Shown here: piece by piece, positions 522 to 28,504 of the stretch
Numbering within the stretch: position 1 is the first letter of the stretch
Layout: each line of letters starts with the position of its first letter
IMG/VR virus record: IMGVR_UViG_3300010362_000022
Span: 1-50,478 of that record
Reading direction: 5' to 3' (one strand)
Source: a virus
Lineage: Duplodnaviria; Caudoviricetes
DNA: 50,478 nt
Translations under genes and position numbers: made by a program
Notes under the pieces: model-generated
What the model was told of the DNA's origin: nothing
Database searches by the model: none
The model's input: only the letters and a program-made list of their open reading frames with translations

Positions 522-3242
522 CTACTCACTGAGACTAACCTTGAGTGTGGTCAGTGATACGCCTAGGGCATCGGCCACATCCTGTTGCGTATACCCGAGA
601 TCCAACATTGATTGGGCACGGAGTCTCTTAGAGGAGGTCATCTTAGGAGTATGCTTAGGCAAGGCAAGGAACTTAACTGTATCGAGGTCACTATTGTCAA
701 TGATCTCTTTTAGTTTGGTAGTGCTGATAGCGTTTGCCTGAATCGCATTCCATTCGCTTTGGGTAACGCGGATCTTTGTTTTACCAGCCCCTGTTCTACG
801 ACGTGCTTCGTTCAATGCGGAGTTCTTAACCTTTACAATCTCTTCCTTCTCGATGTCTGGATTGGACTGCCGTGTTGCGGAGACCCGGGCGTTTGCGAGG
901 AGCTGGGCCTGTCTCTCAAGGGGGGCGTTCCTTTTCGCCTCGTTTAGTTTTGCATTAAGGCTTTCCACTTCAGAGGCATAGGCTTTTTCAGAGGCGGGGG
1001 ACTTTTTTTCACCCTTAATCCCCAATGCTTCTTTCCTTGCCGTATTGGCCATAGCCTTAAGCTGATTCGAGTGCGTTGCATATAGTACTTCCATTGGGGT
1101 GGGGTCAGCTGAGACCAGGCGGAATGCATCTTCTTCCAATGCCAGCTTCTCGATCTTCTGCTGATAGGGGACAAACTTCCCCGTTTCTACCTTTACCTTC
1201 TTACCTGTAGCCGGATCAGTTACCCTTTTGAAATCCTTGCGCATGCGGCCAGATGGAATGTAAACCTTCCTACCCGTAATCGGATCAACGGGTCCACCCA
1301 ATCGTTGCGGTCTTTCAATTCGCTCCTCGATAAACTTGGTACTCTTCTTCCTACTAACAATCGTCTGCGCACCGGCGGTCTTCTTACCCTGATACTTCTC
1401 TTTCAAAGTAAGAATACCATGATCTTTTTCTGATTGGCGATAATCAAGCCCATGCTTTTCCGCATCGATGACTACCATTGAATGCTTGACGGCACGAGCA
1501 ATCTCATGCGGCTCTGCACCCTTGATCGTCATATCGGTAATAAGATTACTAACCTTGCCCATCTCGATTCCCTTTTGCCGATTGGTCATACGGGGAATCG
1601 GGGAATCCTTGTCGAGCTTATACTGTTGTGGGTTAAAATCCTTCAATTCCTGAAGAGCGGGGGTCTTTTCTACAGTTTTCCTATTATTGGGAATAACAAG
1701 AACCGTATCACCATCAAAATCCGCACCAGACAAATGCTGGGCCACACGATGATTGATACCGATAGCATCCTGAGCATGAGGACCGATAAGTCTACGCGCA
1801 TCCGGATTACGATTGTTTACCTTCAATTCAGGAATCTCAAACGTACCACCATGCGGAAAGCGAATCAACACTACACGCTCACCAGGTCGGAAGCTTGGTG
1901 CATAAACCTCGTCATCCTTCAAGGATGGAATCGGCAGGATGACCTTGGTCGATTGGCGTGGTAGATTGGCCGCCTTGAGATGTACCGATGCTGCATCGGT
2001 CTGATCGGCGAAGCGCTCGAGGAGTTCCTTGCGCACGGTTGAATTCGTGAGGGAAAGAATCTCATCGTATTCCTTCTTGCGCTGTTCGAAAGTCAGATCA
2101 AGCTGCTGCTTGGCCAGCTTAGGATTCTGCTTCGACAGCATCTGCGAAGAAAGAGTTCGATTCCATCTATCCCAGGAACCTTCGACACCCGAGCCTTCTT
2201 TGACACCGACGATGTTAAGTGCCGATGTCACTTTACCGGTGACGGGGTCATTAATCTGACGAACAACAGAACCGAAAGGAAGTTCTGAATTCGGCGTCAA
2301 CTCTTTCATAACATCTTTCTTACGCCCCGTGTTCGATTTGTTGGTGTTGACTACAAGATCCACACCGGCAGGCAAGTCATCATTGTATACGGCCATACCC
2401 TTGACAAAATGTGTGCCATCGACAGCAATACGAACCTGCCCGTAATGATCGGAACCAAGATGCAGGTCCTTCACACCAGGTCGAACATAGATCACGCCGT
2501 CGAGCTCAGCTCCACCAGTCTCGGCATAGTTGACCCGGATTCTCTTCGAGTTGACCGAGATCGGTTTCTGTGCACTGAAATAACTATGTCCATTATCATT
2601 CGAATACTCGGGGATCTGCTGGATCTGAGCTCTGTTCCTCTGTACGTCCTGCAAGGAAATACCAGGCTTGGCTAGTACTTTCATCTCGGTGTACTTGCCG
2701 GTACCGATCTGCTGAATCTTGATATTGTGAACTCCGTATCCCATCTCACGCAAAGAAGCAATCGCCGTGTCCAGACGAGTCCTTGTTACGCCGACCCAGT
2801 TCTCGACTCCCTTGCCGACGTCGATCATGTCCTTCGTGTCGACATGCTCTCTCAACATCTTGGCCGTAGTCTGGATGGCATCAGCCTTTTCCATCTCACC
2901 CGGCTTGAGCAAGGCGCGAACAGAAGATTCATTGAGCCCACCCATACGACGACCAATCTCAGGATTCGACCAGCCCCTTTCCTTTAGCCGCTGAGCAGTG
3001 AGAATCTGCTCCTGCTTCTGCTGAGCCTTGGCAATCGAGCGTGCAGCCGTAAGTTCGTTTCTGGTGATGCCAACACCTTTGGCAATCTCAGCATCCGACA
3101 TTCCCTCTTTACGCAGATTAGAAACGTAATCGAGAAAGCTTTTATTGCGCTTGCTTTGCGTACCACCCGATCCCCACGGATAACGACCAGAGCGGCGAAG
3201 GATTCCGTAATGCGCAAGATGCTGTTCTTCAGTACGAATCAC
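522..3242 (-). CDS. Putative single-chain two-barrel (DPBB) RNA polymerase with HTH domains
   Basis: LIRFPH...LSGADFDGDTV matches the RxP...(N/G)ADFDGD catalytic signature; HTH-like segments at both ends (MSDAEIAKGVG, WSNPEIGRRMG, YTQQDVADALGVS). Confidence 0.75.
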   Translation of the reverse strand: MIRTEEQHLAHYGILRRSGRYPWGSGGTQSKRNKSFLDYVSNLRKEGMSDAEIAKGVGITRNELTAARSIAKAQQKQEQILTAQRLKERGWSNPEIGRRMGGLNESSVRALLKPGEMEKADAIQTTAKMLREHVDTKDMIDVGKGVENWVGVTRTRLDTAIASLREMGYGVHNIKIQQIGTGKYTEMKVLAKPGISLQDVQRNRAQIQQIPEYSNDNGHSYFSAQKPISVNSKRIRVNYAETGGAELDGVIYVRPGVKDLHLGSDHYGQVRIAVDGTHFVKGMAVYNDDLPAGVDLVVNTNKSNTGRKKDVMKELTPNSELPFGSVVRQINDPVTGKVTSALNIVGVKEGSGVEGSWDRWNRTLSSQMLSKQNPKLAKQQLDLTFEQRKKEYDEILSLTNSTVRKELLERFADQTDAASVHLKAANLPRQSTKVILPIPSLKDDEVYAPSFRPGERVVLIRFPHGGTFEIPELKVNNRNPDARRLIGPHAQDAIGINHRVAQHLSGADFDGDTVLVIPNNRKTVEKTPALQELKDFNPQQYKLDKDSPIPRMTNRQKGIEMGKVSNLITDMTIKGAEPHEIARAVKHSMVVIDAEKHGLDYRQSEKDHGILTLKEKYQGKKTAGAQTIVSRKKSTKFIEERIERPQRLGGPVDPITGRKVYIPSGRMRKDFKRVTDPATGKKVKVETGKFVPYQQKIEKLALEEDAFRLVSADPTPMEVLYATHSNQLKAMANTARKEALGIKGEKKSPASEKAYASEVESLNAKLNEAKRNAPLERQAQLLANARVSATRQSNPDIEKEEIVKVKNSALNEARRRTGAGKTKIRVTQSEWNAIQANAISTTKLKEIIDNSDLDTVKFLALPKHTPKMTSSKRLRAQSMLDLGYTQQDVADALGVSLTTLKVSLSE

Positions 3243-3796
3243 GATTCCTCCTCCAGTTTTCGATGGGCAATGACTTTGTCGAATTGCTGAATCTTTTCCA
3301 TGATAAACGCGATATCCTCTGGATCGGCATCGTACACCATCACCTCGTTATCTTGGTAAATGCGCAGCTCAATTTTGATATCAAAAGGATTTTTATCGTA
3401 CTCGAGACAAAATAGCGCAGCATAAACCTCAAGTTGGTGTACGGAACCAGGGAACACTCCTGTTTTCAAATCATGAATTCGCAGAGTATTGTATCGAAAC
3501 GCAATCGTATCCGCGGTACCAAAACAATTCTCCGAATAATAGAGAATTTGTTCACAGTTCATGCGATAGCGAATCGCATCATTGATATACAAGCCGATCG
3601 TTCCAACTAGGTCTGACAGCCGACCTGCGGCGATCTCTCGATGTGCATACTCATGTTGCAACGTACCATAGGCTGCGGCTTGAGCTGCAGTCCAACGTTC
3701 CAATAATCGATCAGGCGTATAATGGATCCAATGATATTGACTAGGACTCAGAAACGCATGTTCTCCTTGGAGGTTTAAATGCTTGTTGAAGCGCAC
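3239..3796 (-). CDS. Cas4-like / PD-(D/E)xK exonuclease
   Basis: LSPS, GT..H, GTAD...IHDLKTG, QLEVYA motifs. Confidence 0.75.
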   Translation of the reverse strand: MRFNKHLNLQGEHAFLSPSQYHWIHYTPDRLLERWTAAQAAAYGTLQHEYAHREIAAGRLSDLVGTIGLYINDAIRYRMNCEQILYYSENCFGTADTIAFRYNTLRIHDLKTGVFPGSVHQLEVYAALFCLEYDKNPFDIKIELRIYQDNEVMVYDADPEDIAFIMEKIQQFDKVIAHRKLEEES

Positions 3797-4058
3797 TCAA
3801 AACCTCCTCTTCGTTTTCGGGATAAATATACGCGGCAAAGGACATGTAATTTAATTGCTCGATGTAATATTTTTGATTAGGTTGTGAATTCGACATCGGC
3901 TCGAGTTTAACCTCTAGCGCAGCCCAATGTTTTCTCCAAAGAAGAATGAGATCTGGAATTCCTTGTCGATATGATGAGTCCTGTTTCAAGATCATACAGC
4001 CTGGAAATATACGTTCAAGTTTCTTGATTAATCTAGCTTGGTACTGATTCTCCGTCAT
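3741..4058 (-). CDS. VRR-NUC domain nuclease
   Basis: E..YQ..L, GIPDL, ALEVK, PNQ..Y motifs. Confidence 0.8.
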   Translation of the reverse strand: MTENQYQARLIKKLERIFPGCMILKQDSSYRQGIPDLILLWRKHWAALEVKLEPMSNSQPNQKYYIEQLNYMSFAAYIYPENEEEVLSALQQAFKPPRRTCVSES

Positions 4059-4246
4059 CCCGACGCTGGCGGAGTAGGCGGAGTCACCCCCGCGGAGCCA
4101 GATTCAGGCTGCTGCTGGATAAAACTCGTTACAACGTCTTTACTTGAATCGCCGTTCAGTCCATCCAAAACCGCCTGAGCAACCTGATCCGGCGTCATAC
4201 TCAAAGTATCGTTAGGACCGAGAGTGATACTGATATTTACTTGCAT
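4055..4246 (-). CDS. Hypothetical protein (63 aa)
   Basis: GGAGGA RBS; ATGA overlap with the downstream gene. Confidence 0.7.
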   Translation of the reverse strand: MQVNISITLGPNDTLSMTPDQVAQAVLDGLNGDSSKDVVTSFIQQQPESGSAGVTPPTPPASG

Positions 4247-4254
4247 TCGTCCTC

Positions 4255-4707
4255 CTAAACTTCGAACGCCTTGGGAGAGACCGCCGAATAGGCACGCTCA
4301 AAATCATCTGGGCTCATAGCAAATACTTCGCCGGTTGTTGAAGTAACAACCACTGATGGTGTCATCACAATCGTTGGACCGTGGGGAGTTTGAATTTCCT
4401 CAGTTCCGTCAACTGGACGTTGCGTATAGCGAATTTCTGGTGGAGTTGGCTCAATTGGAGCAGCTGGATTCGGTTCAGCAAGCGGCGGTGTAGGTTCAAT
4501 CAATTCCGTACCATTTGCGTCAACCCGTGGCGGAGGAATTGCTTCCCAGGCATCATGAGCAGCTTGATATTCGGCTTGTCGTTCAGTATTACGAAGTTCA
4601 ACGTCCTTGACGGCCTGTTCCCATGTGCTTCGCTCATTATTATAATTCGAAAGTTGTGCTTGCCAACTATCAAAATCAGTCCGCGCATAATAAACAAGTT
4701 CGCTCAT
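4255..4707 (-). CDS. Hypothetical protein (coiled coil, Pro-rich linker, small C-terminal domain)
   Basis: AGGAGA RBS; C-terminal GEVFAMSPDDFERAY resembles PGDYG-like phage proteins. Confidence 0.7.
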   Translation of the reverse strand: MSELVYYARTDFDSWQAQLSNYNNERSTWEQAVKDVELRNTERQAEYQAAHDAWEAIPPPRVDANGTELIEPTPPLAEPNPAAPIEPTPPEIRYTQRPVDGTEEIQTPHGPTIVMTPSVVVTSTTGEVFAMSPDDFERAYSAVSPKAFEV

Positions 4708-4715
4708 AATTTCTC

Positions 4716-5420
4716 CTATCCGTCAAGCCGAACAATATAAGGAACAAATACTGTTGGCTGCATCGTCTCATGTGCACCGCCGCCACCTGCATTTTGAATC
4801 GAGATACCAGTAGCAGCTCCAGAAATACCAATACCTGTTGCTCGATAATCGGTTGTCATACTGACCATCCACGGTGAATCACCATATCCATCTGGAGCAC
4901 CAGTACCACCGTGATAGTTAAATCCATAATTTGTCAGCGCGTGAATATGCGTCGGATCCGAAACACCATGACCGTGCGTCGGATCCGAAACACTATGTGC
5001 ATGGGCCGGTGTTTCAGCTAAGGTAACTACATGATATTCTTCACCTGTCTTAGCTGCAACCGTAATTGCGACAGAACGAGTTGTTCGATTTGCTCGTGTA
5101 CCACCAGGCATCTGATCCAATCCGCAAGGAGTTAATCCTCGAAGATCGGGAACTCGAAACATTCCCGCACCCGGATCCGTTTGTCCATGCGCTGTCTTCC
5201 ATTCTGGCGCAATATTATTTGACGCTTCCGGATATGTCGTCGAGGAATAAGCTGTACCATCGGCCCAAACCCATTTACCATATTTGGTCAAATCCGGAAG
5301 AACTTTACCACCCCACAATTTAACCTCACCCGGTATCGATGGTACTTGTGGAGCTGTACCCGCACCAGTGTCCCAAAGTGGTACCCACGGTGTTGTTGCT
5401 GGATCAGGAATACTACTCAT
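4716..5420 (-). CDS. Tail-fibre protein (tail-collar domain and HxH repeats)
   Basis: FRVPDLRG collar motif and HAH/HGH/HIH repeats; close paralog of 37656..38450; start reassigned to MSSIPDP (ATGA overlap). Confidence 0.8.
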   Translation of the reverse strand: MSSIPDPATTPWVPLWDTGAGTAPQVPSIPGEVKLWGGKVLPDLTKYGKWVWADGTAYSSTTYPEASNNIAPEWKTAHGQTDPGAGMFRVPDLRGLTPCGLDQMPGGTRANRTTRSVAITVAAKTGEEYHVVTLAETPAHAHSVSDPTHGHGVSDPTHIHALTNYGFNYHGGTGAPDGYGDSPWMVSMTTDYRATGIGISGAATGISIQNAGGGGAHETMQPTVFVPYIVRLDG

Positions 5421-6283
5421 ATAATCCTCCTCGGCATGATTGACCACGATTCCTGATCATAGTACGCCGGAGGATTAGTCGTGGCAGTACTGAGACCAAT
5501 CAAATCTCCAACCGCAAATGTATATACAAAGGGTGCAATAAATGGAGTTCCCCATAATCCGGTTCCGCCTGAATGAACTGGCATCGGGCCGAAATAACTA
5601 CCTGGACTATTCAAATAAAAATTGAAATGATTATACTGACCTGAACCGCCATTATTCATTGTCCGACCACTAGCAGTACACATATAAATACCGGCTCTTG
5701 GTACACGAATTGTTGTTCCGCCTACAATATCTTGCCAACCGCCGGAAGAAATAGTCACCTGCGTAGTATATGTTCTAAAAATTGGTATACCGCCGATAAC
5801 TTCCCATTTATAAGTATCGGCTATATTCGCGTTATAGCGACAACGCCACGACCACGTCGGTGCATTTGCTACATCTACGAGAACGTGTTCTTGACCATTA
5901 ACAGGATTAACTGGAAATTGTGTTCCATAACTAGGTGGAGTCGCGGCATTTGGAATATCGGCAACTTTCAACGATTGCCAAACTGCTCCACCGCTAACAC
6001 CCTTCATCCATTGTCCTTCAATTACTGGAAGTGGAATACCCGAACCTTGTTCTCCTATATCACCGGGTTTTCCAACGGGCCCATCTCTTTTCGGCCAAGC
6101 TATCGGCGCACTCGTTATACCTTCTTTTGTACAAATATAAAGCACTTTGTCCGAGCCGATAACACAATCACCATCGTTATACACGCGTGACGATTCATAA
6201 ATGCCCCAATATCTTTTATGATCGCTTACATCTGCCCGAACCGGAATCCATTTTGTCGTTGCTGGATCAGGGATAGCGCTCAT
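5417..6283 (-). CDS. Tail-fibre / receptor-binding-like protein
   Basis: MSAIPDPATTKW N-terminus, YNDGD..IGSD..LY.C module, GxY repeats, beta-rich C-terminal head. Confidence 0.7.
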   Translation of the reverse strand: MSAIPDPATTKWIPVRADVSDHKRYWGIYESSRVYNDGDCVIGSDKVLYICTKEGITSAPIAWPKRDGPVGKPGDIGEQGSGIPLPVIEGQWMKGVSGGAVWQSLKVADIPNAATPPSYGTQFPVNPVNGQEHVLVDVANAPTWSWRCRYNANIADTYKWEVIGGIPIFRTYTTQVTISSGGWQDIVGGTTIRVPRAGIYMCTASGRTMNNGGSGQYNHFNFYLNSPGSYFGPMPVHSGGTGLWGTPFIAPFVYTFAVGDLIGLSTATTNPPAYYDQESWSIMPRRII

Positions 6284-7155
6284 GGGATCAACCTAATCGG
6301 CATCGCGGACCAAGCAATTTCACCGACATAACCTGGAGTTCCACTGTTCCAATGAGCAGCAACACCAATTGTCGTTCCCGCAAAGAATGAATTAACAAAT
6401 GGAGCAACAGCCAATACACCCCACCAACCAGAATTAAGACCGACAAGACCTTGAGGACCGAACACGTTACCCTGCGTGTTTGCCCACAACATCATGTAAC
6501 AATGTTGTGCACCACTCCAACCATTGTTACATCGAAACGAAGCCTGAAATACATAATATCCCTGAAGAGGCAATGTGATCGCAGTTCCAACAACGTTGAT
6601 CCAAGCATTCGCTTGATTTACCGTTACTTGTGCACCACTGATTCCAAGTATTGGCGTACCGCCAAGCACTTCCCATTTATATGAATTAGACGTTTGTGCA
6701 TTGTAACGACAATGCCACGTTCGAGTAGGAGCAGTAAGTGAATCAACCAAAATACATTCTTGTCCATCAACGGGACTTGCCGGAAGTGTAGTTACATAAG
6801 CGGGTATAGCAGCAGCTCCTGCTACATCAGCTAATGTAATTGGAGACCAAACAGCAGCACCGCCAACACCTTTGACCCATTGCCCATTTACAACCGGAGT
6901 TGGTATACCCACACCTTGTGCTCCCGTGGGACCTTGTATACCTACCGGAGCATTAGCTCCCGACCATCTCACCGGAGCTTTATTAAGAGTTCCATTTTGC
7001 ACGCACATATACAAAATACCATCGGAACCAATTGCACAATCACCATCATTATACGTTTTGGATGCGCTATATGCACCCCAATAAGTTAGACTATCAACTA
7101 TTTTACCCTGTAATGGGACCCATCTTGTCGTTGCTGGATCGGGGATAGTACTCAT
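6280..7155 (-). CDS. Tail-fibre / receptor-binding-like protein
   Basis: Paralog of 5417..6283; start reassigned to MSTIPDPATTRW (ATGA overlap). Confidence 0.7.
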   Translation of the reverse strand: MSTIPDPATTRWVPLQGKIVDSLTYWGAYSASKTYNDGDCAIGSDGILYMCVQNGTLNKAPVRWSGANAPVGIQGPTGAQGVGIPTPVVNGQWVKGVGGAAVWSPITLADVAGAAAIPAYVTTLPASPVDGQECILVDSLTAPTRTWHCRYNAQTSNSYKWEVLGGTPILGISGAQVTVNQANAWINVVGTAITLPLQGYYVFQASFRCNNGWSGAQHCYMMLWANTQGNVFGPQGLVGLNSGWWGVLAVAPFVNSFFAGTTIGVAAHWNSGTPGYVGEIAWSAMPIRLIP

Positions 7156-7859
7156 GGGTAGAAACACACCCCATCGAGTGAAAACCAGCCACCAGAGGGA
7201 AAATTCAATTGACACTCGCCATTAGCATTGATACGCACCGTTCCAATTCCATCATTTGACAATCCATGACAATGTCGATAAAGATCGGGTCGATAACCGA
7301 CAGGAAGTGTAAAAGCAATTGTACCCGACGTACCACCACTCAACAATCCCGAAAGTACGATCAATCCACTTGCAAGCTTTCGAAAACGGCCACCAGGAAA
7401 ACCACTACCATAATCGCGCCAACTATTTACGTATGTAGTAATGGCTACCCAAGCCGTATCAGCGGTAACAAGACCGTCCGTCTTTGTGGCCGGGAGTTGT
7501 GGAATATCTCCTATCGCCAGCGAAGCCCAAACAGCAACTCCACCCAAACCGTTCAACCATTTACCATTTTGTACCGTTGGAAGTCCGGGACCAGTGGCTC
7601 CGATATCTCCTTTGGGTCCCTGAGGCCCTTGCGGTCCGGGCGGACCTGTCGGACCATAAATTCCAGTCCAAGCAATCGGTGCTGCAGTCACGCCATCAGC
7701 AACACAAAGATAAGCGATTCCATCAGAACCAATTACAACATCGCCATTACTGTATGGCGTTCCACCAACATAAGCACCACGATAATGAAAATCGGATGCG
7801 CCACCATTAAGATCCCAAAGTGGAATCCAATCCGTTGAAGTGGGATTTGGGGTGCTCAT
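7152..7859 (-). CDS. Collagen-repeat tail-fibre-like protein
   Basis: [13 protein letters not shown] start, GPxGP repeats, C-terminal FTLPVGYRP...SLDG siphovirus receptor-binding-type head. Confidence 0.75.
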   Translation of the reverse strand: MSTPNPTSTDWIPLWDLNGGASDFHYRGAYVGGTPYSNGDVVIGSDGIAYLCVADGVTAAPIAWTGIYGPTGPPGPQGPQGPKGDIGATGPGLPTVQNGKWLNGLGGVAVWASLAIGDIPQLPATKTDGLVTADTAWVAITTYVNSWRDYGSGFPGGRFRKLASGLIVLSGLLSGGTSGTIAFTLPVGYRPDLYRHCHGLSNDGIGTVRINANGECQLNFPSGGWFSLDGVCFYP

Positions 7860-9607
7860 GAAACCCTCACCGGTGTAATTACGAGTTGTCCATTGGCAAA
7901 AGTAGTGTTCGGTTGAGGAGCATTTGACATACATTGAACTTTGACTGTCTCACCGGCAATAAGGGTCCTTGGTTCACAAGTAACCAACATTGCACCCCAA
8001 TATGCAGATGAACCAGCACCAGAAGCGCTGTTACCCCCACCAGAAGTTGTAGCAAAAGCGCGTGCATAAGCGGTATAAACAGATGCGGTAGCTGCACATT
8101 GATGGTAAGCGCGCGTATCAACTAGATAAATACCGGCACGGGGAATTATCAATGACGGTGTACCTGGCAAATCAAACCAAACGTTGGCTCCCGGCGTACC
8201 CGTATAGGAACCACCAAATCCTCCATAAGACGCGCCGCCAATAAATTCCCATTTATATGTCGAAGTTGATCCCGCATTGTAACGAAATCGCCATTGATAG
8301 GTCGGATTCGTAAGTGAATCAACGAGAATTGCGTCTTGACCATCCACTGGAGATGCTGGCAAACTTGTACCGTAATTAGGCACACCAGCTTTTGTTGCCA
8401 ATGCAGCAACTAATCCTGTTACATCCGCTTGTGCGATTGCTGCCCATGAACCAACTCCGCTCGCACCTTTGAGAAACTGACCATCTACGGCGCTTTTAAT
8501 ATCACCCGCAACAATCGGTGACCAAACAGGTAAACCGCCTGCCCCTTTGATCCATTGACCATTGGTAACTGGTTGCGGTATCGGACCACCTAAACCCGAA
8601 CCACCAGGCCATACCGTCGGCGCTGCACTAGTTGGGCGCACGCACATATAAGCGACGCCATCTTTGATGACGATATCGCCGTCAGTATACGGAGTATTTG
8701 TAGGAAAATCACCGTTATAAACTAGATCTGCGCCACCAGAAGGATCTTCCCAACTTGGTGGACTGCCATCAACCTTGACGGTTAGTACATCATTCAGATG
8801 ACCTATCGTCGATGGATAACCCGGTAAACCATCAACACCCGTAGGACCCGTAGGACCAGTTGGGCCTTGTGGGCCTGTTTCACCAACAGGTCCTTGCGGA
8901 CCCGTTGGTCCAGGCGGTCCGGCCACACCACGCATTGGTGTTACGATCAATACCTGAGTATTACCCGCGGGAGTAAATGCATCCGGCCCGTCCTCGGCGT
9001 GAGTAATTTCAATTGTCCACCATTCACCATGATCAATAGTATCACCGACAACATAACGAATCCAAGTATCAAATTGATTCTTTTCATATAGATACAAATC
9101 GTCGCCGGGATTAAGAAATACGATTGCCAACGGCGTAGCGCCCTGTTTATCATACTGCGACATGTAAAGTTCAGTCGCCGTACCAACAGGTCCATTCATT
9201 TTGCAGAAACCGGGAGCAGGATCCGTTGCCTCGGTATTGGTCTTCCACTCATACCAATATGAAGCAAGTGAAGCTCCAGGAGCACCCGTCTCACCTTGAG
9301 GTCCTACGGGACCTTCAGCGCCTTGTGGACCTGGAGGTCCAGCTGGGCCTGGATTGCCGATATTACCTGCAGCTAAAACAATCACGTCTAGTGAAGTTTC
9401 AAGCGCAAAAGTTGTATCTGGCGGCTGTTCGATCGTGATCCGAGATTCATTAGCTTCGATTGTTACATCAAGGGGATCAACATCAAACTCAAACGAAACA
9501 AGTGTTTCCACATCTGACTCAAGCTCTACATCAATATCCGCAGGATCCACATCGAAGACAATTGTTTCCTCAGTTACGACTTTGACAATGAGATCATCTA
9601 GTAACAT
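7856..9607 (-). CDS. Long collagen-repeat tail-fibre-like protein
   Basis: Two GPxGP blocks and modules shared with the downstream paralogs; start reassigned to MLLDDL. Confidence 0.75.
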
Positions 9608-9974
9608 CGGACACGCACTCCACAGATCCTTGACACAAGGTACGCGGCTGTTTATTAGCGGGGGCCCATTGAACATCCCAGACGCCTAGAAATGTGCCCT
9701 GCTTACTAGAAGGATGCGCGGATAGTGTTTGTGTCTGTGCGCCAGTTAAGGAAAGCACGACAATTCCTTGATAAGCGTCAACCATATTGGTAGCAAATTC
9801 GACGATAGCCGGATCCGCTGTCAAACGTTCGAGTCGAACCTGCGCCTTGACGGTGCCGGTGACGTCGACAGGAGCACCGGCCTTGTCCGTACAGATTAGA
9901 CGAAATTCTACACCGTCTCCAGCATACAATGCTAGATTCAAAACTTGAGGCTGAAGATTAATTTCGTTAGCCAT
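9594..9974 (-). CDS. Baseplate/fibre-attachment-like protein (BppU N-terminal-like)
   Basis: LYAGD..F.L..D..G.PVD.TG...QVR...G...LSLT..QT...WDVQ...TL..G pattern; GGAGG RBS. Confidence 0.6.
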   Translation of the reverse strand: MANEINLQPQVLNLALYAGDGVEFRLICTDKAGAPVDVTGTVKAQVRLERLTADPAIVEFATNMVDAYQGIVVLSLTGAQTQTLSAHPSSKQGTFLGVWDVQWAPANKQPRTLCQGSVECVSDVTR

Positions 9975-10040
9975 GCCCCTCCTTTCTCACTTTGCGACCC
10001 AATAAATGCTAAAAAATAAAAGAGATGTTCTATCCCTTCT

Positions 10041-10065
10041 GTTATACACCGCGATATCTATGCTA
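10041..10065 (-). promoter_or_regulatory. Variant copy of the phage promoter-like motif (TAGCA-N14-TATAAC)
   Basis: Same 14-nt spacing as ten other copies; directly followed by a 9-bp hairpin and T-tract. Confidence 0.55.
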
Positions 10066-23587: not shown

Positions 23588-23603
23588 ATTATCCTTCGTT
23601 GAG

Positions 23604-23630
23604 AAAAAAGAGAGTCCGTGATGGACTCTC
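23604..23630 (-). terminator. Intrinsic terminator
   Basis: GAGAGTCC/GGACTCTC hairpin followed by a T-tract on the minus strand. Confidence 0.75.
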
Positions 23631-23640
23631 CCTTCCCCTA

Positions 23641-23883
23641 CTATTGATCACTCTTTCGAGCGGTGTTCCATGCGATTGCATCGTCGATGCGCTGGTTGAC
23701 GTGCTTCGCGCAGTGATCCCCGATGACCGATCCGATCACCAGGCTGCCCGTCAGAACCCTCGCTGCATCGAACGAGGTGACGACAACGGTGTTATTTCGA
23801 ATGATATCGTGAACGACTTTCGAAACACCAACACTAGCAACAACGTGAACAGCAAGTCTCGCAATGGACATTGACTCGGTCAC
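23641..23883 (-). CDS. Small membrane-associated protein in a promoter-terminator cassette
   Basis: AGGAGA RBS, GTG start; flanked by the promoter motif and a terminator. Confidence 0.7.
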   Translation of the reverse strand: MTESMSIARLAVHVVASVGVSKVVHDIIRNNTVVVTSFDAARVLTGSLVIGSVIGDHCAKHVNQRIDDAIAWNTARKSDQ

Positions 23884-23907: not shown

Positions 23908-23932
23908 ATTATAGCGTTAGTTTTTTTTGCGA
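23908..23932 (-). promoter_or_regulatory. Phage promoter-like motif
   Basis: TCGCA AAAAAAAC TAACGC TATAAT GAAACCTA. Confidence 0.75.
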
Positions 23933-25649: not shown

Positions 25650-25790
25650 CTAACAGCCGTATTGAGATCGCCTACGCATTTCTCGTACGAAGATCCAGAT
25701 CAACCAAAATCCGAACGTGAGACATACCATGATGCAGTCTCCGACGAAGCTAAAGAAGCCGTAGCGTTTCCTCTCGACGATTACGAACAT
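25650..25790 (-). CDS. Small membrane protein (46 aa), paralog of 27628..27744
   Basis: Hand-translated MFVIVERKRYGFFSFVGDCIMVCLTFGFWLIWIFVREMRRRSQYGC; AGGAGA RBS. Confidence 0.75.
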   Translation of the reverse strand: MFVIVERKRYGFFSFVGDCIMVCLTFGFWLIWIFVREMRRRSQYGC

Positions 25791-25869: not shown

Positions 25870-25937
25870 AAAAAAAATAAGAGAGGCTTCCATCGACCGT
25901 AGCCGGTGGAGTGCTCCATTGTAGAGCATACCTCTCT
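25870..25937 (-). ncRNA. Promoter-driven small RNA 1 (three-way junction)
   Basis: Starts right after TATAAT; AGAGAGG/CCUCUCU closing stem, two internal hairpins, U-tract; no convincing ORF. Confidence 0.65.
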
Positions 25938-25962
25938 ATTATAGAAGGAGTTTTTCTTGCGT
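25938..25962 (-). promoter_or_regulatory. Phage promoter-like motif
   Basis: ACGCA AGAAAAAC TCCTTC TATAAT. Confidence 0.75.
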
Positions 25963-25964: not shown

Positions 25965-26405
25965 TTATCGTGTAACTGGTACTCGTTCGAGATGGTGACC
26001 TACAACGTGGGGGAGCAATCCATTTACATGATCTGATACCATCTTATCCGTAGCTCCAAGAGCTTTTGCTGCGGCACTCTGAGATCGATAATAAAGATCC
26101 GTACCAATGTCGTGAACGAGATAACTCGGACGACCGATTTCATTTCGAATAATTGTGTTTACATTAGTTTGGCGCGAAGAAAAAAGAGAAAGAGGGCGAT
26201 TGGTAACCAGAGTATCTGCAGTTTCCAGTCCATAGGGTCCGCCATAGGCTAGTCCCTCAATACGACCTCTTCTCATTATAAGACAGGTAATTCCTGCGAT
26301 CGCAAATCCAGTACCAAATGAATATGCGACTTTGTGCCGAGTAACATGTTCACGAAGTTTTCTAAATGGTTCGTCGAAATTGATCTTGTGTTCGAACGTC
26401 GGCAT
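25965..26405 (-). CDS. Membrane protein with C-terminal NUMOD1-like HTH
   Basis: TM segment; YYRSQSAAAKALG....VSDHVNG. Confidence 0.7.
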   Translation of the reverse strand: MPTFEHKINFDEPFRKLREHVTRHKVAYSFGTGFAIAGITCLIMRRGRIEGLAYGGPYGLETADTLVTNRPLSLFSSRQTNVNTIIRNEIGRPSYLVHDIGTDLYYRSQSAAAKALGATDKMVSDHVNGLLPHVVGHHLERVPVTR

Positions 26406-26421: not shown

Positions 26422-26515
26422 AAAAAAAATAAAAAAGAGAGGCCTGATGTAATATAGGGTCCGAGGAAATTACGGTGCCTATATCGCTCCGAGGAAATTA
26501 CGGTGCGACCTCTCT
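26422..26515 (-). ncRNA. Promoter-driven small RNA 2 with twin identical hairpin loops
   Basis: AGAGAGG/CCUCUCU closing stem; 19-bp direct repeat 26460-26478/26488-26506; U-tract; no ORF. Confidence 0.7.
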
Positions 26516-26540
26516 ATTATAAGAGTTGTTTTTCCTGCGA
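26516..26540 (-). promoter_or_regulatory. Phage promoter-like motif
   Basis: TCGCA GGAAAAAC AACTCT TATAAT. Confidence 0.75.
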
Positions 26541-26544
26541 GTTG

Positions 26545-26577
26545 AAAAAGTTAAAGCCCTTGTTACAGGGCCTTAAC
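26545..26577 (-). terminator. Conserved cassette terminator
   Basis: GTTAAAGCCCT/AGGGCCTTAAC hairpin plus T-tract. Confidence 0.7.
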
Positions 26578-26578
26578 C

Positions 26579-26845
26579 TTATACAACCTTGTCGGGAAGT
26601 GCAACGAAGAACTTCTGTCTCGGATTGACATCGTTGACAAATCCGATCACGCCTTGTCCGTTCTTTTTCAGAAAATCGACGCTTTCCATCGAGATGTTCA
26701 GCCAGTAGATTTCAGGCTTGTACTTAGTGAGGTACATAGCCGTCATAACCGAACCGGCAACAACACCAGGAATGGTGTACGTCACAATCTTGCGAACGCG
26801 AGGCGTGATACGATCTTTCAACGATTTCATCGAAACATCGTCCAT
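26579..26845 (-). CDS. Small membrane protein (88 aa)
   Basis: GAAAGGAG RBS before MDDVSMK; one TM. Confidence 0.7.
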   Translation of the reverse strand: MDDVSMKSLKDRITPRVRKIVTYTIPGVVAGSVMTAMYLTKYKPEIYWLNISMESVDFLKKNGQGVIGFVNDVNPRQKFFVALPDKVV

Positions 26846-26866: not shown

Positions 26867-26891
26867 ATTATATGACGTGTTTTTCCTGCGA
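26867..26891 (-). promoter_or_regulatory. Phage promoter-like motif
   Basis: TCGCA GGAAAAAC ACGTCA TATAAT GAAACCTA. Confidence 0.75.
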
Positions 26892-26958
26892 AAAAAAAAG
26901 AAAGAAGGCCTGAATGATTTGTCCGACAACCTCGGGAAGTCGGCAGGTTACTCCTTTC
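26892..26958 (-). ncRNA. Promoter-driven small RNA 3
   Basis: GAAAGGAG/CUUCUUUC closing stem directly after TATAAT, CCUG/CAGG and CCGAC/GUCGG stems, U-tract. Confidence 0.6.
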
Positions 26959-26983
26959 ATTATAAAGCATGTTTTCTCTGCGA
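26959..26983 (-). promoter_or_regulatory. Phage promoter-like motif
   Basis: TCGCA GAGAAAAC ATGCTT TATAAT. Confidence 0.75.
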
Positions 26984-26987
26984 GGCG

Positions 26988-27021
26988 AAAAAGCTAAAGC
27001 CCCGGTTAAGGGGCCTCAGCT
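26988..27021 (-). terminator. Conserved cassette terminator
   Basis: AGCTAAAGCCCC/GGGGCCTCAGCT hairpin plus T-tract. Confidence 0.65.
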
Positions 27022-27168
27022 TTACTTGGCAACCTTGTTGCTAACCTTCGCAACGACCTTCGCGCCGATGAACATGGTGGCAGCAACGACTCCGACCCAC
27101 GATCCGAGCTCCTCGGTGAGGAGTGAACCGCGCTTCAAAGTGGTGCTGACGACCTCTGCCTTGGGCAT
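27022..27168 (-). CDS. Small membrane protein (48 aa)
   Basis: Hand-translated MPKAEVVSTTLKRGSLLTEELGSWVGVVAATMFIGAKVVAKVSNKVAK; GAAAGGA RBS. Confidence 0.7.
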   Translation of the reverse strand: MPKAEVVSTTLKRGSLLTEELGSWVGVVAATMFIGAKVVAKVSNKVAK

Positions 27169-27197
27169 GATAGTCCTTTCTTTAGGTTTAAGGTTTC

Positions 27198-27222
27198 ATT
27201 ATAGGAGAGGTTATTTCTGCGT
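27198..27222 (-). promoter_or_regulatory. Phage promoter-like motif
   Basis: ACGCA GAAATAAC CTCTCC TATAAT GAAACCT. Confidence 0.75.
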
Positions 27223-27234
27223 GATTTGCAGCAG

Positions 27235-27263
27235 AAAATGAAAGCCCTTGTTCAGGGCTCTCA
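27235..27263 (-). terminator. Conserved cassette terminator
   Basis: TGAAAGCCCT/AGGGCTCTCA hairpin plus T-tract. Confidence 0.65.
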
Positions 27264-27264
27264 C

Positions 27265-27540
27265 TTATTGACCTAGTACCCAAACAAGATCTGGGTCCTT
27301 ACTAAATCCATTCTCGTACAAATCATCTTCCGGAACGATAGTGGTTCTCGATTGTTTGTAGGATAGGTTCGGCGGATTGATAGTAGCGAGTTCGATCAAG
27401 AGGTATTGCTCATCTTCTTTTGCAACTGCCTCTTGAACTTCTCGGTTTGTTTCCGAATTCGACGTGACCCCACTCATATGCAAGAATGCGACCAACTCGA
27501 GAGTTGACTCGTTAATTTGAATGGCGTATTTAGTGGACAC
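27265..27540 (-). CDS. Hypothetical protein (91 aa)
   Basis: AAAGGAGG RBS, GTG start, inside a cassette. Confidence 0.75.
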   Translation of the reverse strand: MSTKYAIQINESTLELVAFLHMSGVTSNSETNREVQEAVAKEDEQYLLIELATINPPNLSYKQSRTTIVPEDDLYENGFSKDPDLVWVLGQ

Positions 27541-27561
27541 ATTTCCTCCTTTCTAGGTTTC

Positions 27562-27586
27562 ATTATAAGCGGAGTTTTTTCTGCGA
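27562..27586 (-). promoter_or_regulatory. Phage promoter-like motif
   Basis: TCGCA GAAAAAAC TCCGCT TATAAT GAAACCTA. Confidence 0.75.
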
Positions 27587-27620
27587 AAAACTAAAGCCCT
27601 AGTTGCAGGCCTTAGCTTTT
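27586..27620 (-). terminator. Conserved cassette terminator
   Basis: CTAAAGCCCT/AGGCCTTAG imperfect hairpin plus T-tract. Confidence 0.6.
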
Positions 27621-27627
27621 AAGTCTA

Positions 27628-27744
27628 TTAATACGCGTTACGTGCGCGCATTTCTCGATTGAACATCCAGATCAGCCAAATGCCTCCGGTGAAGAGGACC
27701 ATGACGCAATCAAAGATGAGGTTTCTGAGCTTGTAGCGACGCAT
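27628..27744 (-). CDS. Small membrane protein (38 aa)
   Basis: Hand-translated MRRYKLRNLIFDCVMVLFTGGIWLIWMFNREMRARNAY; AAGGAG RBS. Confidence 0.75.
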   Translation of the reverse strand: MRRYKLRNLIFDCVMVLFTGGIWLIWMFNREMRARNAY

Positions 27745-27765
27745 AACATCTCCTTAATAGGTTTC

Positions 27766-27790
27766 ATTATACGCGATGTAATATCTGCGA
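27766..27790 (-). promoter_or_regulatory. Phage promoter-like motif
   Basis: TCGCA GATATTAC ATCGCG TATAAT GAAACCTA. Confidence 0.75.
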
Positions 27791-27800
27791 GTTTGCAGGC

Positions 27801-27830
27801 AAATTTACCCCCGGGGATTTTTTCAGATCG
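27801..27830. repeat. Dispersed quasi-palindrome AAATT..CCCCCGGGG..TTTTT
   Basis: Related copies at 13379-13400 and 50451-50475. Confidence 0.55.
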
Positions 27831-27858
27831 AAAAAAATAAATGCTTTGTTGAACATGC

Positions 27859-27892
27859 GAAAAACTAAAACCCGAGTTGGGTCTTAGTTTTC
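27859..27892 (-). terminator. Conserved cassette terminator
   Basis: AAAACTAAAACCC/GGGTCTTAGTTTT hairpin. Confidence 0.65.
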
Positions 27893-27905
27893 GAACCTGT
27901 CATGG

Positions 27906-28067
27906 TTAGACAGCGAGCTTGAGGTTCTTGCGCCGTTTCCAGTTCAGATACAATCCACGCACCTTGCTGAGCAGCTTGTCCGAACCCCAGATGATGGAGT
28001 ACCAGATAGCTGTCCACAGGATGGTGGAAACGATCTTGAACAGGATACGCGTGAACATAGCCAGCAT
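27906..28067 (-). CDS. Small membrane protein (53 aa)
   Basis: Hand-translated MLAMFTRILFKIVSTILWTAIWYSIIWGSDKLLSKVRGLYLNWKRRKNLKLAV; GAAAGGA RBS. Confidence 0.7.
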   Translation of the reverse strand: MLAMFTRILFKIVSTILWTAIWYSIIWGSDKLLSKVRGLYLNWKRRKNLKLAV

Positions 28068-28088
28068 TTTAATCCTTTCGTAGGTTTC

Positions 28089-28113
28089 ATTATAGGATAT
28101 GTAGTTTTTGCGT
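28089..28113 (-). promoter_or_regulatory. Phage promoter-like motif
   Basis: ACGCA AAAACTAC ATATCC TATAAT GAAACCTA. Confidence 0.75.
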
Positions 28114-28125
28114 GTTTTGCAGGCA

Positions 28126-28162
28126 AAAAATATAAAGGCCCCTGTTACAGGGCCCTTATATT
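28126..28162 (-). terminator. Conserved cassette terminator
   Basis: AATATAAAGGCCC/GGGCCCTTATATT hairpin plus T-tract. Confidence 0.7.
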
Positions 28163-28182
28163 CTCAAACTCCCAAATTTCCG

Positions 28183-28458
28183 TTATCTCGGCTTGAGCAG
28201 CAAACCGATCGCTTTTGAAGCGATGACATTCACGTTCTCGTGCTTGATAATCATCAGGATTCCAAACAGATTTGCTCCGACGATTAGCAACGTATCTCTG
28301 CTCACGGGCCTTGGCTTTTCATGCATCCTCAGCTCGTGCAACTTCATCGCTGCATTCAACGTCCTTACATACTCTTCGGAACCGATCGGATGATTGTTCA
28401 ACTCACGAAGCGTGCGATCCAGCATCTTCTCCAGCAAAGTTTCGCTCATTCCAAACAT
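28183..28458 (-). CDS. Membrane protein
   Basis: SEEY...L..L.....VS.DTLLIVGANL.GIL.I..HE..NVI.SKA pattern. Confidence 0.75.
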   Translation of the reverse strand: MFGMSETLLEKMLDRTLRELNNHPIGSEEYVRTLNAAMKLHELRMHEKPRPVSRDTLLIVGANLFGILMIIKHENVNVIASKAIGLLLKPR

Positions 28459-28479
28459 ACGGCTCCTTAGGTAGCTTTC

Positions 28480-28504
28480 ATTATAAGCCGTGTTTTACTC
28501 GCGA
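28480..28504 (-). promoter_or_regulatory. Phage promoter-like motif (first of the array)
   Basis: TCGCG AGTAAAAC ACGGCT TATAAT GAAAG. Confidence 0.7.

Follow-up and report, generated by a model that had tools for sequence, protein, structure and literature searches.

Described phage polymerases and the published repeat

YonO of Bacillus SPbeta is a single-chain, two-barrel DNA-dependent RNA polymerase of ~100 kDa, as the candidate considered here is predicted to be. It makes one late operon, and the portion of the report available to us leaves its promoter sequence undefined (PMC5467207), whereas in the window, by which we mean the whole 50,478-nt stretch of phage DNA that was analyzed, many copies of a promoter-like motif head non-structural genes. 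The virion polymerase gp96 of Thermus phage P23-45 was found by ChIP-seq and 5′-end mapping to use its own AT-rich pre-early promoters. It resembles the window's predicted enzyme in being a single-chain two-barrel polymerase with a private class of AT-rich promoters, but, according to the accessible part of that paper, it forms a fusion with the tape measure protein and has a second polymerase alongside it (PMC10770324). The window phage has instead one 906-aa protein with fused helix-turn-helix (HTH) modules and a three-part promoter of fixed spacing. The gp66 protein of the crAss-like phage phi14:2, a virion-packaged single-chain polymerase for early genes, is a further likeness to the proposed enzyme. 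However, it has 2,180 aa and, in the sections of the report at hand, its early transcripts share no common motif, while a conserved motif of that phage is read by the host polymerase and not by the virion enzyme (bioRxiv 2020.03.07.982082).

The window is from a Lactococcus 1706-like / actinophage AM-AU-AW-BI-CC-DJ-EL siphovirus, and ORF75 of Lactococcus phage 1706 and the "HTH domain-containing protein" of the actinophage supercluster share its protein family and genome layout. That this family is an RNA polymerase with an HTH at both ends has already been predicted, as far as the accessible texts go (Ruprich-Robert and Thuriaux 2010, PMC2919709; Koert et al., bioRxiv 10.1101/842583), the latter with an HHpred RdRP match (P = 95.68%). 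The word "promoters" has 0 occurrences in the main text of Koert et al., and no promoter is given for the 1706 ORF75 family in the available text of Ruprich-Robert and Thuriaux. Our literature searches found no published activity test of the family's polymerase, no start-site, rifampicin or enzyme data for this phage group and, in agreement with the sequence-only reading made earlier, no paper joining the motif to the polymerase.

The same reading had mentioned intergenic repeats in related phages, and such repeats have indeed been published for Vardy (PMC9671010) and Conley (PMC10868162), two Gordonia phages of cluster DJ. Their 43-50-bp motif is very probably the same element: it has five copies and, as in the window, contains TATAAT and occupies cassettes in the middle of the genome, among small membrane genes and terminators. 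Tanis, of the same group, has 13 copies. The published reading is a sigma-70 -10 box in one cluster, without the polymerase link, the start-site inference or the RNA units. What is new here is the apparent start boundary at +1, the drift of the hexamer at fixed spacing, the finding that nearly all records retrieved by the motif alone encode the polymerase, and the concentration of the motif in polymerase-bearing prophages of host genomes.

Promoter-like repeats in the window

A pattern scan of the whole window gave 11 minus-strand and 0 plus-strand matches to WCGC(A/G)-N6-AC-N6-TATAAT, and 200 dinucleotide shuffles gave none. The ten copies listed earlier were confirmed in coordinates, strand, 14-nt spacer and internal AC, and an eleventh strict copy, absent from that list, lies at 26275-26299. 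Of 15 TATAAT hexamers on the minus strand of the window, 11 belong to the motif. The variant noted at 10041-10065 is present but weaker than had been implied, with TC replacing AC and without the CGC. The copies found by the motif scan, with genes from open reading frames and terminators from folding, are:

10041..10065, minus strand: promoter copy, variant TAGCA-N6-TC-N6-TATAAC
23908..23932, minus strand: promoter copy before the 76-aa gene 23641-23871
25938..25962, minus strand: promoter copy
26275..26299, minus strand: eleventh strict promoter copy, inside ORF 25965-26405
26516..26540, minus strand: promoter copy
26867..26891, minus strand: promoter copy before the 88-aa gene 26579-26845; terminator hairpin ~26544-26578
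26959..26983, minus strand: promoter copy
27198..27222, minus strand: promoter copy before the 48-aa gene 27022-27168; terminator ~26987-27022
27562..27586, minus strand: promoter copy before the 91-aa gene 27265-27540; terminator ~27233-27264
27766..27790, minus strand: promoter copy before the 38-aa hydrophobic gene 27628-27744; terminator ~27588-27618
28089..28113, minus strand: promoter copy before the 53-aa hydrophobic gene 27906-28067; terminator ~27859-27892
28480..28504, minus strand: promoter copy before the 91-aa gene 28183-28458 (PHROG 5818); terminator ~28123-28165
23600..23638, minus strand: strong terminator-like hairpin past the 76-aa gene (fold, -22.4 kcal/mol)

With a putative +1 set at the first base past the hexamer, the consensus across genomes is YCGCR (-25 to -21), AC (-14, -13), an AT-rich hexamer (-6 to -1) and purines at +1 and +2, and the analysis supports the reading of the repeats as promoters. 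The copy at 28480-28504 is the first past the tail genes. The replication genes downstream of the 23600-23638 hairpin have no promoter copy, there being no site between 23908 and 10065, and no copy stands out in the structural half, either in the window or in 18 other near-complete genomes. To call this a self-contained transcription system, as had been done, was thus an overstatement; the late structural genes need some other transcription source. Phages bearing the motif are widespread in soil and gut.

The polymerase candidate and its operon

522..3242, minus strand: 906-aa single-chain two-barrel RNA polymerase candidate of the 1706 ORF75 family, with GADFDGD (PHROG 4291, E = 0)
3239..3796, minus strand: exonuclease gene preceding the polymerase gene in a conserved operon
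3741..4058, minus strand: VRR-Nuc-like endonuclease gene preceding the polymerase gene in the same operon (PHROG 3953/93 matches lie in 3239..4058)

The 906-aa protein belongs to the 1706 ORF75 / PHROG 4291 polymerase family: the PHROG match spans residues 3-905, and 249 of 250 matching phage records are covered at at least 80%. It carries HTH modules at both ends and a YonO-like two-barrel signature, with the DxDGD metal loop, an upstream R-x-P and second-barrel D and K residues. D248, Q269, R271, K281, K371, R461, P463, D508, D510 and D512 are invariant in 41 of 41 relatives, and we take these residues to correspond to eight universal two-barrel positions, a match made by motif and not by structure. 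Pfam gave an HTH match together with Sigma70_r4_2 and RdRP matches that were both below the curated cut-offs (RdRP, E = 0.0008). A sequence-profile search of solved structures returned no polymerase for this protein, and its Atlas neighbours all fell within its own family. No other RNA polymerase candidate was seen in the scan of 66 ORFs.

We consider it probable that virions carry the enzyme. Its N-terminal LAHYG tag resembles the DUF7211 peptide of a head-module protein, and 1706 ORF75 is annotated as a "structural protein". The nuclease-polymerase gene order is the same in relatives, and the 10041 variant is the probable counterpart of the copy that lies ~0.9 kb before the polymerase gene in those phages; in the near relatives L424 and L425, variants of the TAGCG/TAGCA-TC type occur 4.7 and 5.6 kb ahead of this gene. 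In the window, tail-fibre-like genes of ~5.9 kb displace the 10041 copy from the polymerase gene.

Comparison with sigma-70 promoters

In 22 genomes, 138 sense matches had a 14-nt spacer, and every other length between 10 and 19 had 2-7. The most frequent hexamer is TATAAT (280 of 459 sites), which is mostly perfect in actinophages. In Firmicutes phages the hexamer drifts to CTTTAT or TTTTAT while the spacing is unchanged: it is CTTTAT in 11 of 15 FP_oengus sites, and in Firmicutes prophages TATAAT occurs in 1 of 42 sites, 23 of which lack A at position 2. The pattern T-A-n-n-n-T, held by 11 of 11 window copies and most actinophages, is not kept in FP_oengus, where CTTTAT prevails, or in those 23 of 42 prophage sites. 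Position 2 is nevertheless A in 453 of 538 sites overall (84%), close to the 87% quoted for Escherichia coli in the accessible text of PMC2613000; an argument from the -11 A applies to particular lineages only, because of this overall value.

These observations bear on the possibility that host sigma-A uses TATAAT as its -10 box, with a start at about +7, and that the CGC/AC box binds a phage activator, which might be the HTH modules of the same protein. The predominance of TATAAT would agree with it, as would the conservation of the first, second and last hexamer bases as in sigma-70 promoters, the interpretation published for Vardy and Conley, the phi14:2 precedent as it appears in the available text, and the GAAACCT|A of the window's coding units, which would give a pyrimidine-purine start at +8. 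However, relative to the bacterial promoters described in the accessible part of PMC2613000, the phage motif shares TATAAT in most actinophage members but has no -35 or TG element and no spacer variation: TTGACA with at least 4 of 6 matches at a 16-18 spacer was present in only 21 of 431 sites and a TG extension in 4 of 431, and a sigma-70 scan called none of the window's copies. The same geometry is also retained where the hexamer has become CTTTAT or TTTTAT. Start codons show no peak at +7 (1 of 455 sites, with 4 at +8), and a +7 start would cut the closing stems, Shine-Dalgarno sites and tRNA-like acceptor strands described below. We therefore regard a host sigma-A promoter as unlikely.

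The probable 5′ boundary of the RNAs

The first transcribed base appears to be the one that follows the hexamer. The sequence-only reading had placed the start at or within TATAAT; it is indeed too near the hexamer for sigma-70, but the pairing boundary puts it right after the hexamer and not within it. Among 76 short ORF-less units from 34 genomes, positions +1 to +7 pair with their own 3′ end at -5.5 kcal/mol compared with -4.3 for swapped ends, a value matched in 0 of 500 swaps, while the hexamer pairs no better than expected (z 0.7). An ungapped register was present in 42 units; +1 was paired in 35 of them and -1 in 9. Purines occupy +1 in 427 and +2 in 428 of 431 sites, the site profile having ignored downstream bases. 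The sole Shine-Dalgarno core begins within +1 to +5 at 21 of 543 sites (9 genomes) and, among prophage sites, at 5 of 42. Independently of the motif, 12 tRNA-like elements were identified; 9 of these follow it immediately, and 6 of those 9 have nucleotide 1 at +2 to +6. As initiation by E. coli sigma-70 falls 7>8>9 nt past the -10 box (PMC2613000, available text), the phage start would be 6 nt earlier, with stems, Shine-Dalgarno sites and tRNA-like 5′ strands beginning at +1 to +6. Transcripts that read through from upstream could likewise form the stems and ribosome-binding sites.

A fixed 5′ boundary would fit a cut as well as a start, so that a nuclease cutting after UAUAAU in long transcripts was considered; the copy at 26275 does sit within coding sequence. 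However, 147 of 431 sites, against 22 of 1293 random positions, have the end of a hairpin with a U-run immediately before them, which indicates that the motif is often not in the RNA, and the conserved bases reach 25 nt upstream with helical spacing and are followed by a purine-purine start. Processing at this boundary is thus extremely improbable.

Predicted RNA units and leaders behind the promoters

26893..26958, minus strand: stand-alone small RNA, ~60 nt, closed from +1, its U-run abutting the next promoter (fold)
26428..26515, minus strand: three-way-junction RNA, ~80 nt, with the loop CGTAATTTCCTCG present twice (alignment, fold)
26175..26274, minus strand: hairpin RNA unit, ~95 nt, closed from +1 and overprinted on coding sequence (fold)
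25965..26405, minus strand: 146-aa gene containing a whole promoter copy and RNA unit (ORF, PHROG 27818)
25870..25937, minus strand: two-hairpin RNA, ~60 nt, closed from +1, with a U-run end (fold)
10010..10040, minus strand: short leader hairpin and U-run from +1, then a promoterless gene (fold; leader family in relatives)

In the four ORF-less units noted earlier (behind the copies at 26959, 26516, 25938 and 10041), the predicted closing stem begins, as had been claimed, on the first base past the hexamer, and a U-run forms the end; this prediction extends to the unlisted 26275 copy. When these five units were folded from +7 the stem was lost, the energies changing from -21.5 to -12.5, -29.2 to -17.6, -28.4 to -18.0, -6.8 to -0.9 and -29.9 to -19.8 kcal/mol.

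Among the RNA units of the window, the claim of small RNAs clearly holds for just one, the stand-alone 26959; three of the four ORF-less units directly precede genes without their own promoter copy, and 50 of the 76 short units are followed by such genes. Most may be attenuator leaders and not only small RNAs. The 25870..25937 RNA is the leader of the promoterless DUF6353 operon (25857 to 24113), the next motif being 1.9 kb off, and has positional counterparts in G001, G002, G004 and G023. The 10041 copy carries a AGAAGGGATAGAA-type leader, as do relatives. The 26428..26515 scaffold, aligned over 4 sequences, is kept in relatives with other twin loops, and 6 of its 20 predicted pairs show two-sided change. 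The 26175..26274 unit has counterparts in G001 and G046; its motif encodes IAGIT(C/G)LI(M/I) in the window and in both of these, within a conserved gene whose protein has a hydrophobic segment and a C-terminal PHROG 27818 domain. No curated Rfam 15 family was matched by the window RNA units, one sub-threshold sraL match (E = 0.013) falling over a mini-gene. The window contains no tRNA, and seven 20-kb tiles of relatives gave one only.

The leaders would also suit a dual use, in which the phage enzyme starts at +1 to give short terminated RNAs and host sigma-A starts at +7, shortening the hairpin and reading through into the operon. The destruction of the closing stem on folding from +7, the frequency of promoterless genes behind short units and the perfect TATAAT of most actinophages are in keeping with this. 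However, the copy that heads the polymerase operon of Firmicutes prophages mostly has TTTTAT (37 of 94 sites), a poor -10 box, and we consider such dual use quite unlikely.

Linkage of motif and polymerase across genomes

A scan of relatives for co-occurrence, which the sequence-only reading had proposed, bore out the linkage: retrieval by the motif alone gave 45 long records, of which 43 encode the polymerase, although these genomes are related and the counts are not independent events. One of the two exceptions ends just past the helicase gene, and the other has one isolated match with no group genes in the 20 kb examined. In the reverse direction, 131 polymerase loci picked without the motif had a sense site at most 10 kb upstream in 102 cases and an antisense site in 5. 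In five bacterial genomes, 57 of 63 motif matches lie in polymerase-bearing prophages and 6 elsewhere, the reversed control giving 8. No relative without the polymerase gene was found for comparison, and co-occurrence cannot single out the polymerase because every core gene of the group accompanies the motif.

That sharing leaves room for a +1 promoter read by another phage factor, or by the polymerase with a separate specificity factor, the DFDGD protein by itself serving in, for example, late transcription or primer synthesis. Several conserved genes of the group have no known function, YonO transcribes late genes and its need for extra factors is left open in the accessible text (PMC5467207), and in 15 named genomes a TCGCA-like loop ~30 nt from the right end suggests that another protein may bind there. 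However, a start 1 nt past an AT-rich hexamer needs a non-host catalytic core, for which the 906-aa protein is the sole candidate; HTH modules are built into this protein, and its operon is preceded by a copy of the motif. Phage P092, a single case, has lost the CGC box as well as the ESSVR that is conserved in the second HTH. A separate reader is thus very unlikely.

The earlier proposal that the motif is read by the 906-aa protein has held up as the most likely one: from the two-way co-occurrence, the exclusion from host chromosomes, the lineages with hexamers that are not -10 boxes and the copy before its own operon, we infer with a probability of about 0.75 that the polymerase itself reads these promoters, including one before its own operon. 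In such recognition the fused HTH modules would bind the CGC box and, about one helical turn away, the AC; melting would occur at the hexamer, and the RNA would begin on the +1 purine. Early in infection, the enzyme would transcribe one-gene cassettes (promoter, small and often membrane protein, terminator) and short self-closing RNAs, while the +1 hairpin and U-run of the leaders would stop most transcripts ahead of delayed operons, namely the DUF6353 block, the replication block and the nuclease-polymerase operon itself. Temperate members, as a counterpoint, must begin expression from the prophage without a packaged enzyme.

The fullest version of this proposal is tentative and may well fail in some part: a 100-kDa two-barrel polymerase with a sigma-4-like HTH would alone read a 25-bp duplex promoter and start 1 base past a host-mimic TATAAT, would be delivered by virions across two host phyla, and would drive a toolkit of RNAs self-closing 5′ to 3′, with +1-dependent leader terminators timing later operons, including its own gene. 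Such a toolkit, if true, would comprise tRNA look-alikes without CCA, twin-loop decoy scaffolds and an uncatalogued kissing-loop RNA.

A fixed-geometry motif linked to the candidate polymerase gene

The strict form of the motif, in which a CGC box and an AC precede an AT-rich hexamer placed 14 nt downstream, has 11 minus-strand and no plus-strand matches in the window, and none in 200 shuffles. This bears out the repeated motif described by the sequence-only reading, whose list lacked one strict match (26275-26299) and whose variant at 10041 is present but carries neither CGC nor AC. Six of the seven mini-gene copies start clean cassettes closed by a predicted terminator hairpin, and a terminator following the 23908 cassette was likewise detected by fold prediction. 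At five copies the first bases of the downstream stretch pair with a pyrimidine run preceding the U-run. The promoter and RNA predicted at 26275 (window 26175-26299, including the U-run) are overprinted on a conserved 146-aa gene (ORF 25965-26405), where the promoter codes for part of a hydrophobic segment; the same arrangement is found in two relatives, G001 and G046.

The geometry is constant between lineages while the words vary. In 22 genomes (the window, 17 named phages and 4 further records), CGC(A/G)-TATA(A/G) pairs occur 138 times in the sense direction with the 14-nt spacer, against 2-7 times for each other length, and the motif profile gives 213 sense sites and no antisense site. On an enlarged set the profile found 431 distinct sites in 47 genome pieces, and 538 in 48 pieces when refined per genome, with related genomes inflating all of the site and unit counts reported here. 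Phage FP_oengus uses ACGCG...CTTTAT, 1706 has CCACA-type boxes with TATAGT, and P092 has TTTTA...TATAAT. Judged from sequence, the motif copies are almost certainly promoters.

The earlier reading named as a check whether the motif keeps company with the gene for the 906-aa DFDGD protein (522-3242, minus strand), a candidate RNA polymerase, and the two do occur together. A motif-first 14-base scan of viral contigs returned at least 165 stretches; among the matches listed, 58 records were at least 40 kb long, of which the 50 longest were taken and 45 examined for the polymerase gene. The gene is encoded by 43 of these 45 and, among the matches listed, by 30 of the 31 that are at least 90% complete, a linkage to be read with the fact that all core genes of the group are distributed like the polymerase gene. 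We found no real case of the motif in a relative lacking the gene: one apparent exception is a group member whose truncated record stops about 0.8 kb past the helicase gene, at the point where the polymerase gene is expected, and the other is an isolated match with no group genes within the 20 kb examined. Starting instead from the polymerase gene, a sense site lies within 10 kb upstream in 102 of 131 loci (within 2.5 kb in 79) and an antisense site in 5. With a relaxed threshold, 94 of 161 loci show a recurrent copy about 0.9 kb upstream, heading the nuclease-exonuclease-polymerase operon; this search was run without a null control and takes in a few doubtful sites. In five Firmicutes genomes (~17.6 Mb), 57 of 63 matches fell inside six polymerase-bearing prophages and 6 elsewhere; the reversed pattern gave 8 matches, compared with these 6 non-prophage matches of the true motif.

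Summer et al. 2011 (ReqiPepy6/ReqiPoco6) or Garneau et al. 2008 (1706) may describe the motif. In the portions of the literature covered, no paper was found that links the polymerase with the motif or places the start. The enzyme family and the motif are already in print separately; the link between them and the start base are what the present sequence comparisons would add.

Predicted start of transcription

Four lines of evidence point to a start on the first base after the hexamer (+1). With a profile blind to downstream bases, a purine is found at +1 in 427 of 431 sites and at +2 in 428. The second line comes from 76 short ORF-less units of 34 genomes, defined by their U-run alone, in which the mean probability of pairing with the 3' end is 0.64-0.71 at +1 to +6, 0.30-0.37 at -1 to -3 and at most 0.15 farther upstream. 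Bases +1 to +7 favour the 3' end of their own unit over swapped ends (0/500 swaps), and of the 42 units whose register is ungapped, 35 have +1 paired and 9 have -1 paired. Thirdly, at 21 of 543 sites (9 genomes) the sole Shine-Dalgarno core begins at +1 to +5, with an ATG at +13 to +21; 5 of 42 prophage sites share this early placement. Lastly, tRNA-like elements were sought by their own arms: of the 12 found, nine sit immediately behind the motif, six of them with an acceptor strand beginning at +2 to +6, and the three without the motif resemble ordinary tRNAs.

The same features could be supplied by read-through RNA from upstream, but 147 of the 431 sites have a terminator ending just before them, compared with 22 of 1293 random positions. 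The proposal of a start at or within TATAAT stands as to a very early start and fails as to one within the hexamer, since the boundary falls at the first base after it: the hexamer pairs with its own 3' end no better than with swapped ends, and the A:U pairs at -2 and -3 are accounted for by the U-run. A start at +1, or within one base of it, is very probable on this evidence. Two further candidates were rejected: read as a leaderless start codon, TATA-ATG shares an open frame with the gene that follows at just 47 of 227 sites, and the CGC-box spacing and the C at -13 misfit the consensus of a sigma-54-type -24/-12 promoter.

In the published reading, host sigma-70 takes the hexamer as its -10 box; the motif was so interpreted in Gordonia phages Vardy (PMC9671010, in the excerpts consulted) and Conley (PMC10868162), and a search by term of the main text of survey papers on these clusters (PMC7302621, PMC13313380, PMC5513430) found no description of it. 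This reading is favoured by the hexamer itself, which is TATAAT in the window and in most actinophages, and by the overall conservation of its second base (84%), similar to the 87% of E. coli given in excerpts of PMC2613000. However, -35 and TG elements are absent at the motif sites, and whole lineages drop the -10 rule: FP_oengus has CTTTAT in 11 of 15 sites, position 2 is not A in 8 of 14 sites of one relative (G021), and among prophage sites position 2 is not A in 23 of 42 and TATAAT occurs once. According to the same excerpts (PMC2613000), sigma-70 requires the A at -11 and starts 7>8>9 nt beyond the -10 box, and such a start would cut the stems, the Shine-Dalgarno cores and the tRNA-like acceptor strands.

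The DFDGD protein as candidate reader

The PHROG 4291 match spans residues 3-905 of the 906-aa protein, and Pfam places helix-turn-helix (HTH) modules near 30-61, 82-101 and 870-905, with a weak RdRP match across DFDGD. All 41 relatives compared, down to 36% identity, keep ten candidate catalytic residues unchanged. That the 1706-type family is an RNA polymerase has been predicted in print, from sequence, since 2010: the 1706 protein is listed with the YonO-like two-barrel polymerases (PMC2919709, in part), and the DxDGD motif and the HTH at both ends were noted by Koert et al. (bioRxiv 10.1101/842583, in the sections covered). In GenBank, 1706 ORF75 is annotated as 'structural protein'. A profile search of solved structures gave non-significant matches only, mostly to the N-terminal HTH (best: SigL sigma region 4, E=0.17), and no report of an activity or target of a 1706-type polymerase was found in the literature. 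Co-variation between the second HTH and the upstream box offers one informative change only (P092), too few for statistics. We put the probability that the DFDGD protein reads these promoters at about three in four.

For YonO, the best-studied relative, the promoter sequence was left undetermined in the consulted parts of PMC5467207. The present system would work in the manner of the P23-45 virion polymerase with its private promoters (PMC10770324, in part), as a variant on that scheme. A precisely defined candidate promoter and predicted start base can now be offered for a 1706-type polymerase, directly testable in cultured phage-host pairs. If true, they would correct the published sigma-70 reading, show how a one-chain relative of cellular polymerases locates promoters without sigma, and account for the control of early genes in a large group of phages from soil Actinobacteria and gut Firmicutes; they could also provide those hosts with a compact orthogonal expression system and reveal several unannotated RNA families.

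Two further observations concern the protein. LAHYG at its N-terminus (window 3218) resembles LAHHG of a DUF7211-matching head-module protein (window 46609), and this common tag is a possible packaging signal. A short early-region ORF (197-aa open frame), at G057:C1:296155-296436 and G061:C28:118257-118535, resembles polymerase residues 527-619 (E~4e-12) and is possibly a decoy or regulator.

RNA units and proposed leaders

The unit at 26959 is the only clearly stand-alone RNA in the window. Across the relatives, 15 of the 76 units adjoin the next promoter, 50 precede a gene without a promoter copy and 11 do neither; window units preceding promoterless genes are 26516, 25938 (DUF6353 operon) and 10041. 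Units of this kind could be either small RNAs whose ends are leaky or attenuator leaders, and we favour leaders, which would delay the downstream operons. Before the polymerase operon, 37 of 94 leaders have a hairpin by a crude rule, with complementary ends visible by eye in many uncounted rows and several weak leaders in actinophages.

The 26516 RNA has a conserved twin-loop scaffold (4 sequences), with two-sided change in 6 of 20 pairs; of five matches in a metagenome scan for further homologues one was real, and two gapped viral scans gave none. In other units, two to four tandem short hairpin/loop copies likewise lie inside a +1-closed stem. The relatives, as distinct from the window, also carry tRNA-like RNAs and a structured RNA of ~85-140 nt behind the motif.

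RNAs in relatives' genomes and loci
Tandem-hairpin units: L082 (Paella 46585), L084-L085 (Paella 85750), G029, G042, G002
~85-140-nt RNA: L067:9823-9947, L055:11622-11707, L061:8481-8564, L082:8011-8150, L071:3123-3250
~85-140-nt RNA, further loci: L119, L120, L148, L153, L212, L241
tRNA-like RNAs behind the motif: L331, L501, L499, L503, L505, L194, L087, L002, L071:2700-2775, L311:2705-2777

The ~85-140-nt RNA comes from Gordonia, Arthrobacter, Rhodococcus and other phages. Its stems covary (17 of 26 pairs, 7 sequences, 0/500 shuffles), and its two loops complement each other (Watson-Crick in 49 of 55 cells, 11 sequences, shuffle P 0.0004), as in ACGAA/UUCGU, ACUAA/UUAGU and ACGCA/UGCGU. The tRNA-like RNAs, directly behind the motif, combine a D-arm and T-loop with odd anticodon arms and U-run ends; ARAGORN made 2 tRNA calls among 15 loci scanned. 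Rfam gave no match for the window units, nor for the ~85-140-nt RNA in five tiles containing it. As a guess, the RNA units could be decoys for host defence or RNA-binding proteins.

Late genes and genome organization

The transcription system had been proposed as self-contained, and here the proposal failed: neither the window nor any of 18 other near-complete genomes has a prominent motif copy in its structural half, where the highest-scoring sites (0.6-13.6; antisense maxima, 4.4-12.6) are intragenic. There is likewise no copy in the window between 23908 and 10065, an interval that follows a strong terminator. Late genes would therefore need read-through, another promoter class or the host polymerase; because all genes face one way, they could possibly be reached by read-through from the polymerase operon over the joined genome ends.

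The virus record (50,478 bases) is 86% complete, and its recognisable genes all lie on the minus strand, in the order lysis, terminase, portal, fused protease-capsid, tail, small-gene block, primase-polymerase, helicase, tail-fibre-like genes, VRR-Nuc-like endonuclease, exonuclease and the 906-aa gene. The product of the last matched 250 phage records, 249 across at least 80% of its length, with Arthrobacter, Gordonia, Streptomyces, Lactococcus, Curtobacterium, Microbacterium, Rhodococcus and Faecalibacterium as hosts or sources. At least 7,999 proteins are related to the polymerase, and the phage group spans soil Actinobacteria and gut Firmicutes; the supergroup containing this phage was described by Koert et al. 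(bioRxiv 10.1101/842583, in the sections covered).

In the window, ~5.9 kb of tail-fibre-like and unidentified genes (4055-9974) separate the variant promoter from the nuclease-polymerase operon, where most relatives have ~100 nt. Two small hydrophobic ORFs (27628-27744 and 25650-25790) are evident paralogues with a common DC.MV..T.G.WLIW.F.REMR pattern. Amid the mini-genes, at ~27800-27823, the left genome-end element (A-run, CCCC, GGGGG) recurs; another 15 records have internal copies like it, one of them probably at the junction of its genome. At the right ends of 15 named genomes (L001, L002, L056, L059 and others), a G-run/C-run hairpin lies ~30 nt before the cohesive end, its loop often TCGCA or a near variant, which recalls the upstream half of the promoter. 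Many group members sit in bacterial assemblies (loci L344-L423), several as Firmicutes prophages, and one genome, G058, holds two prophages, both carrying a polymerase gene and a motif cluster of their own.
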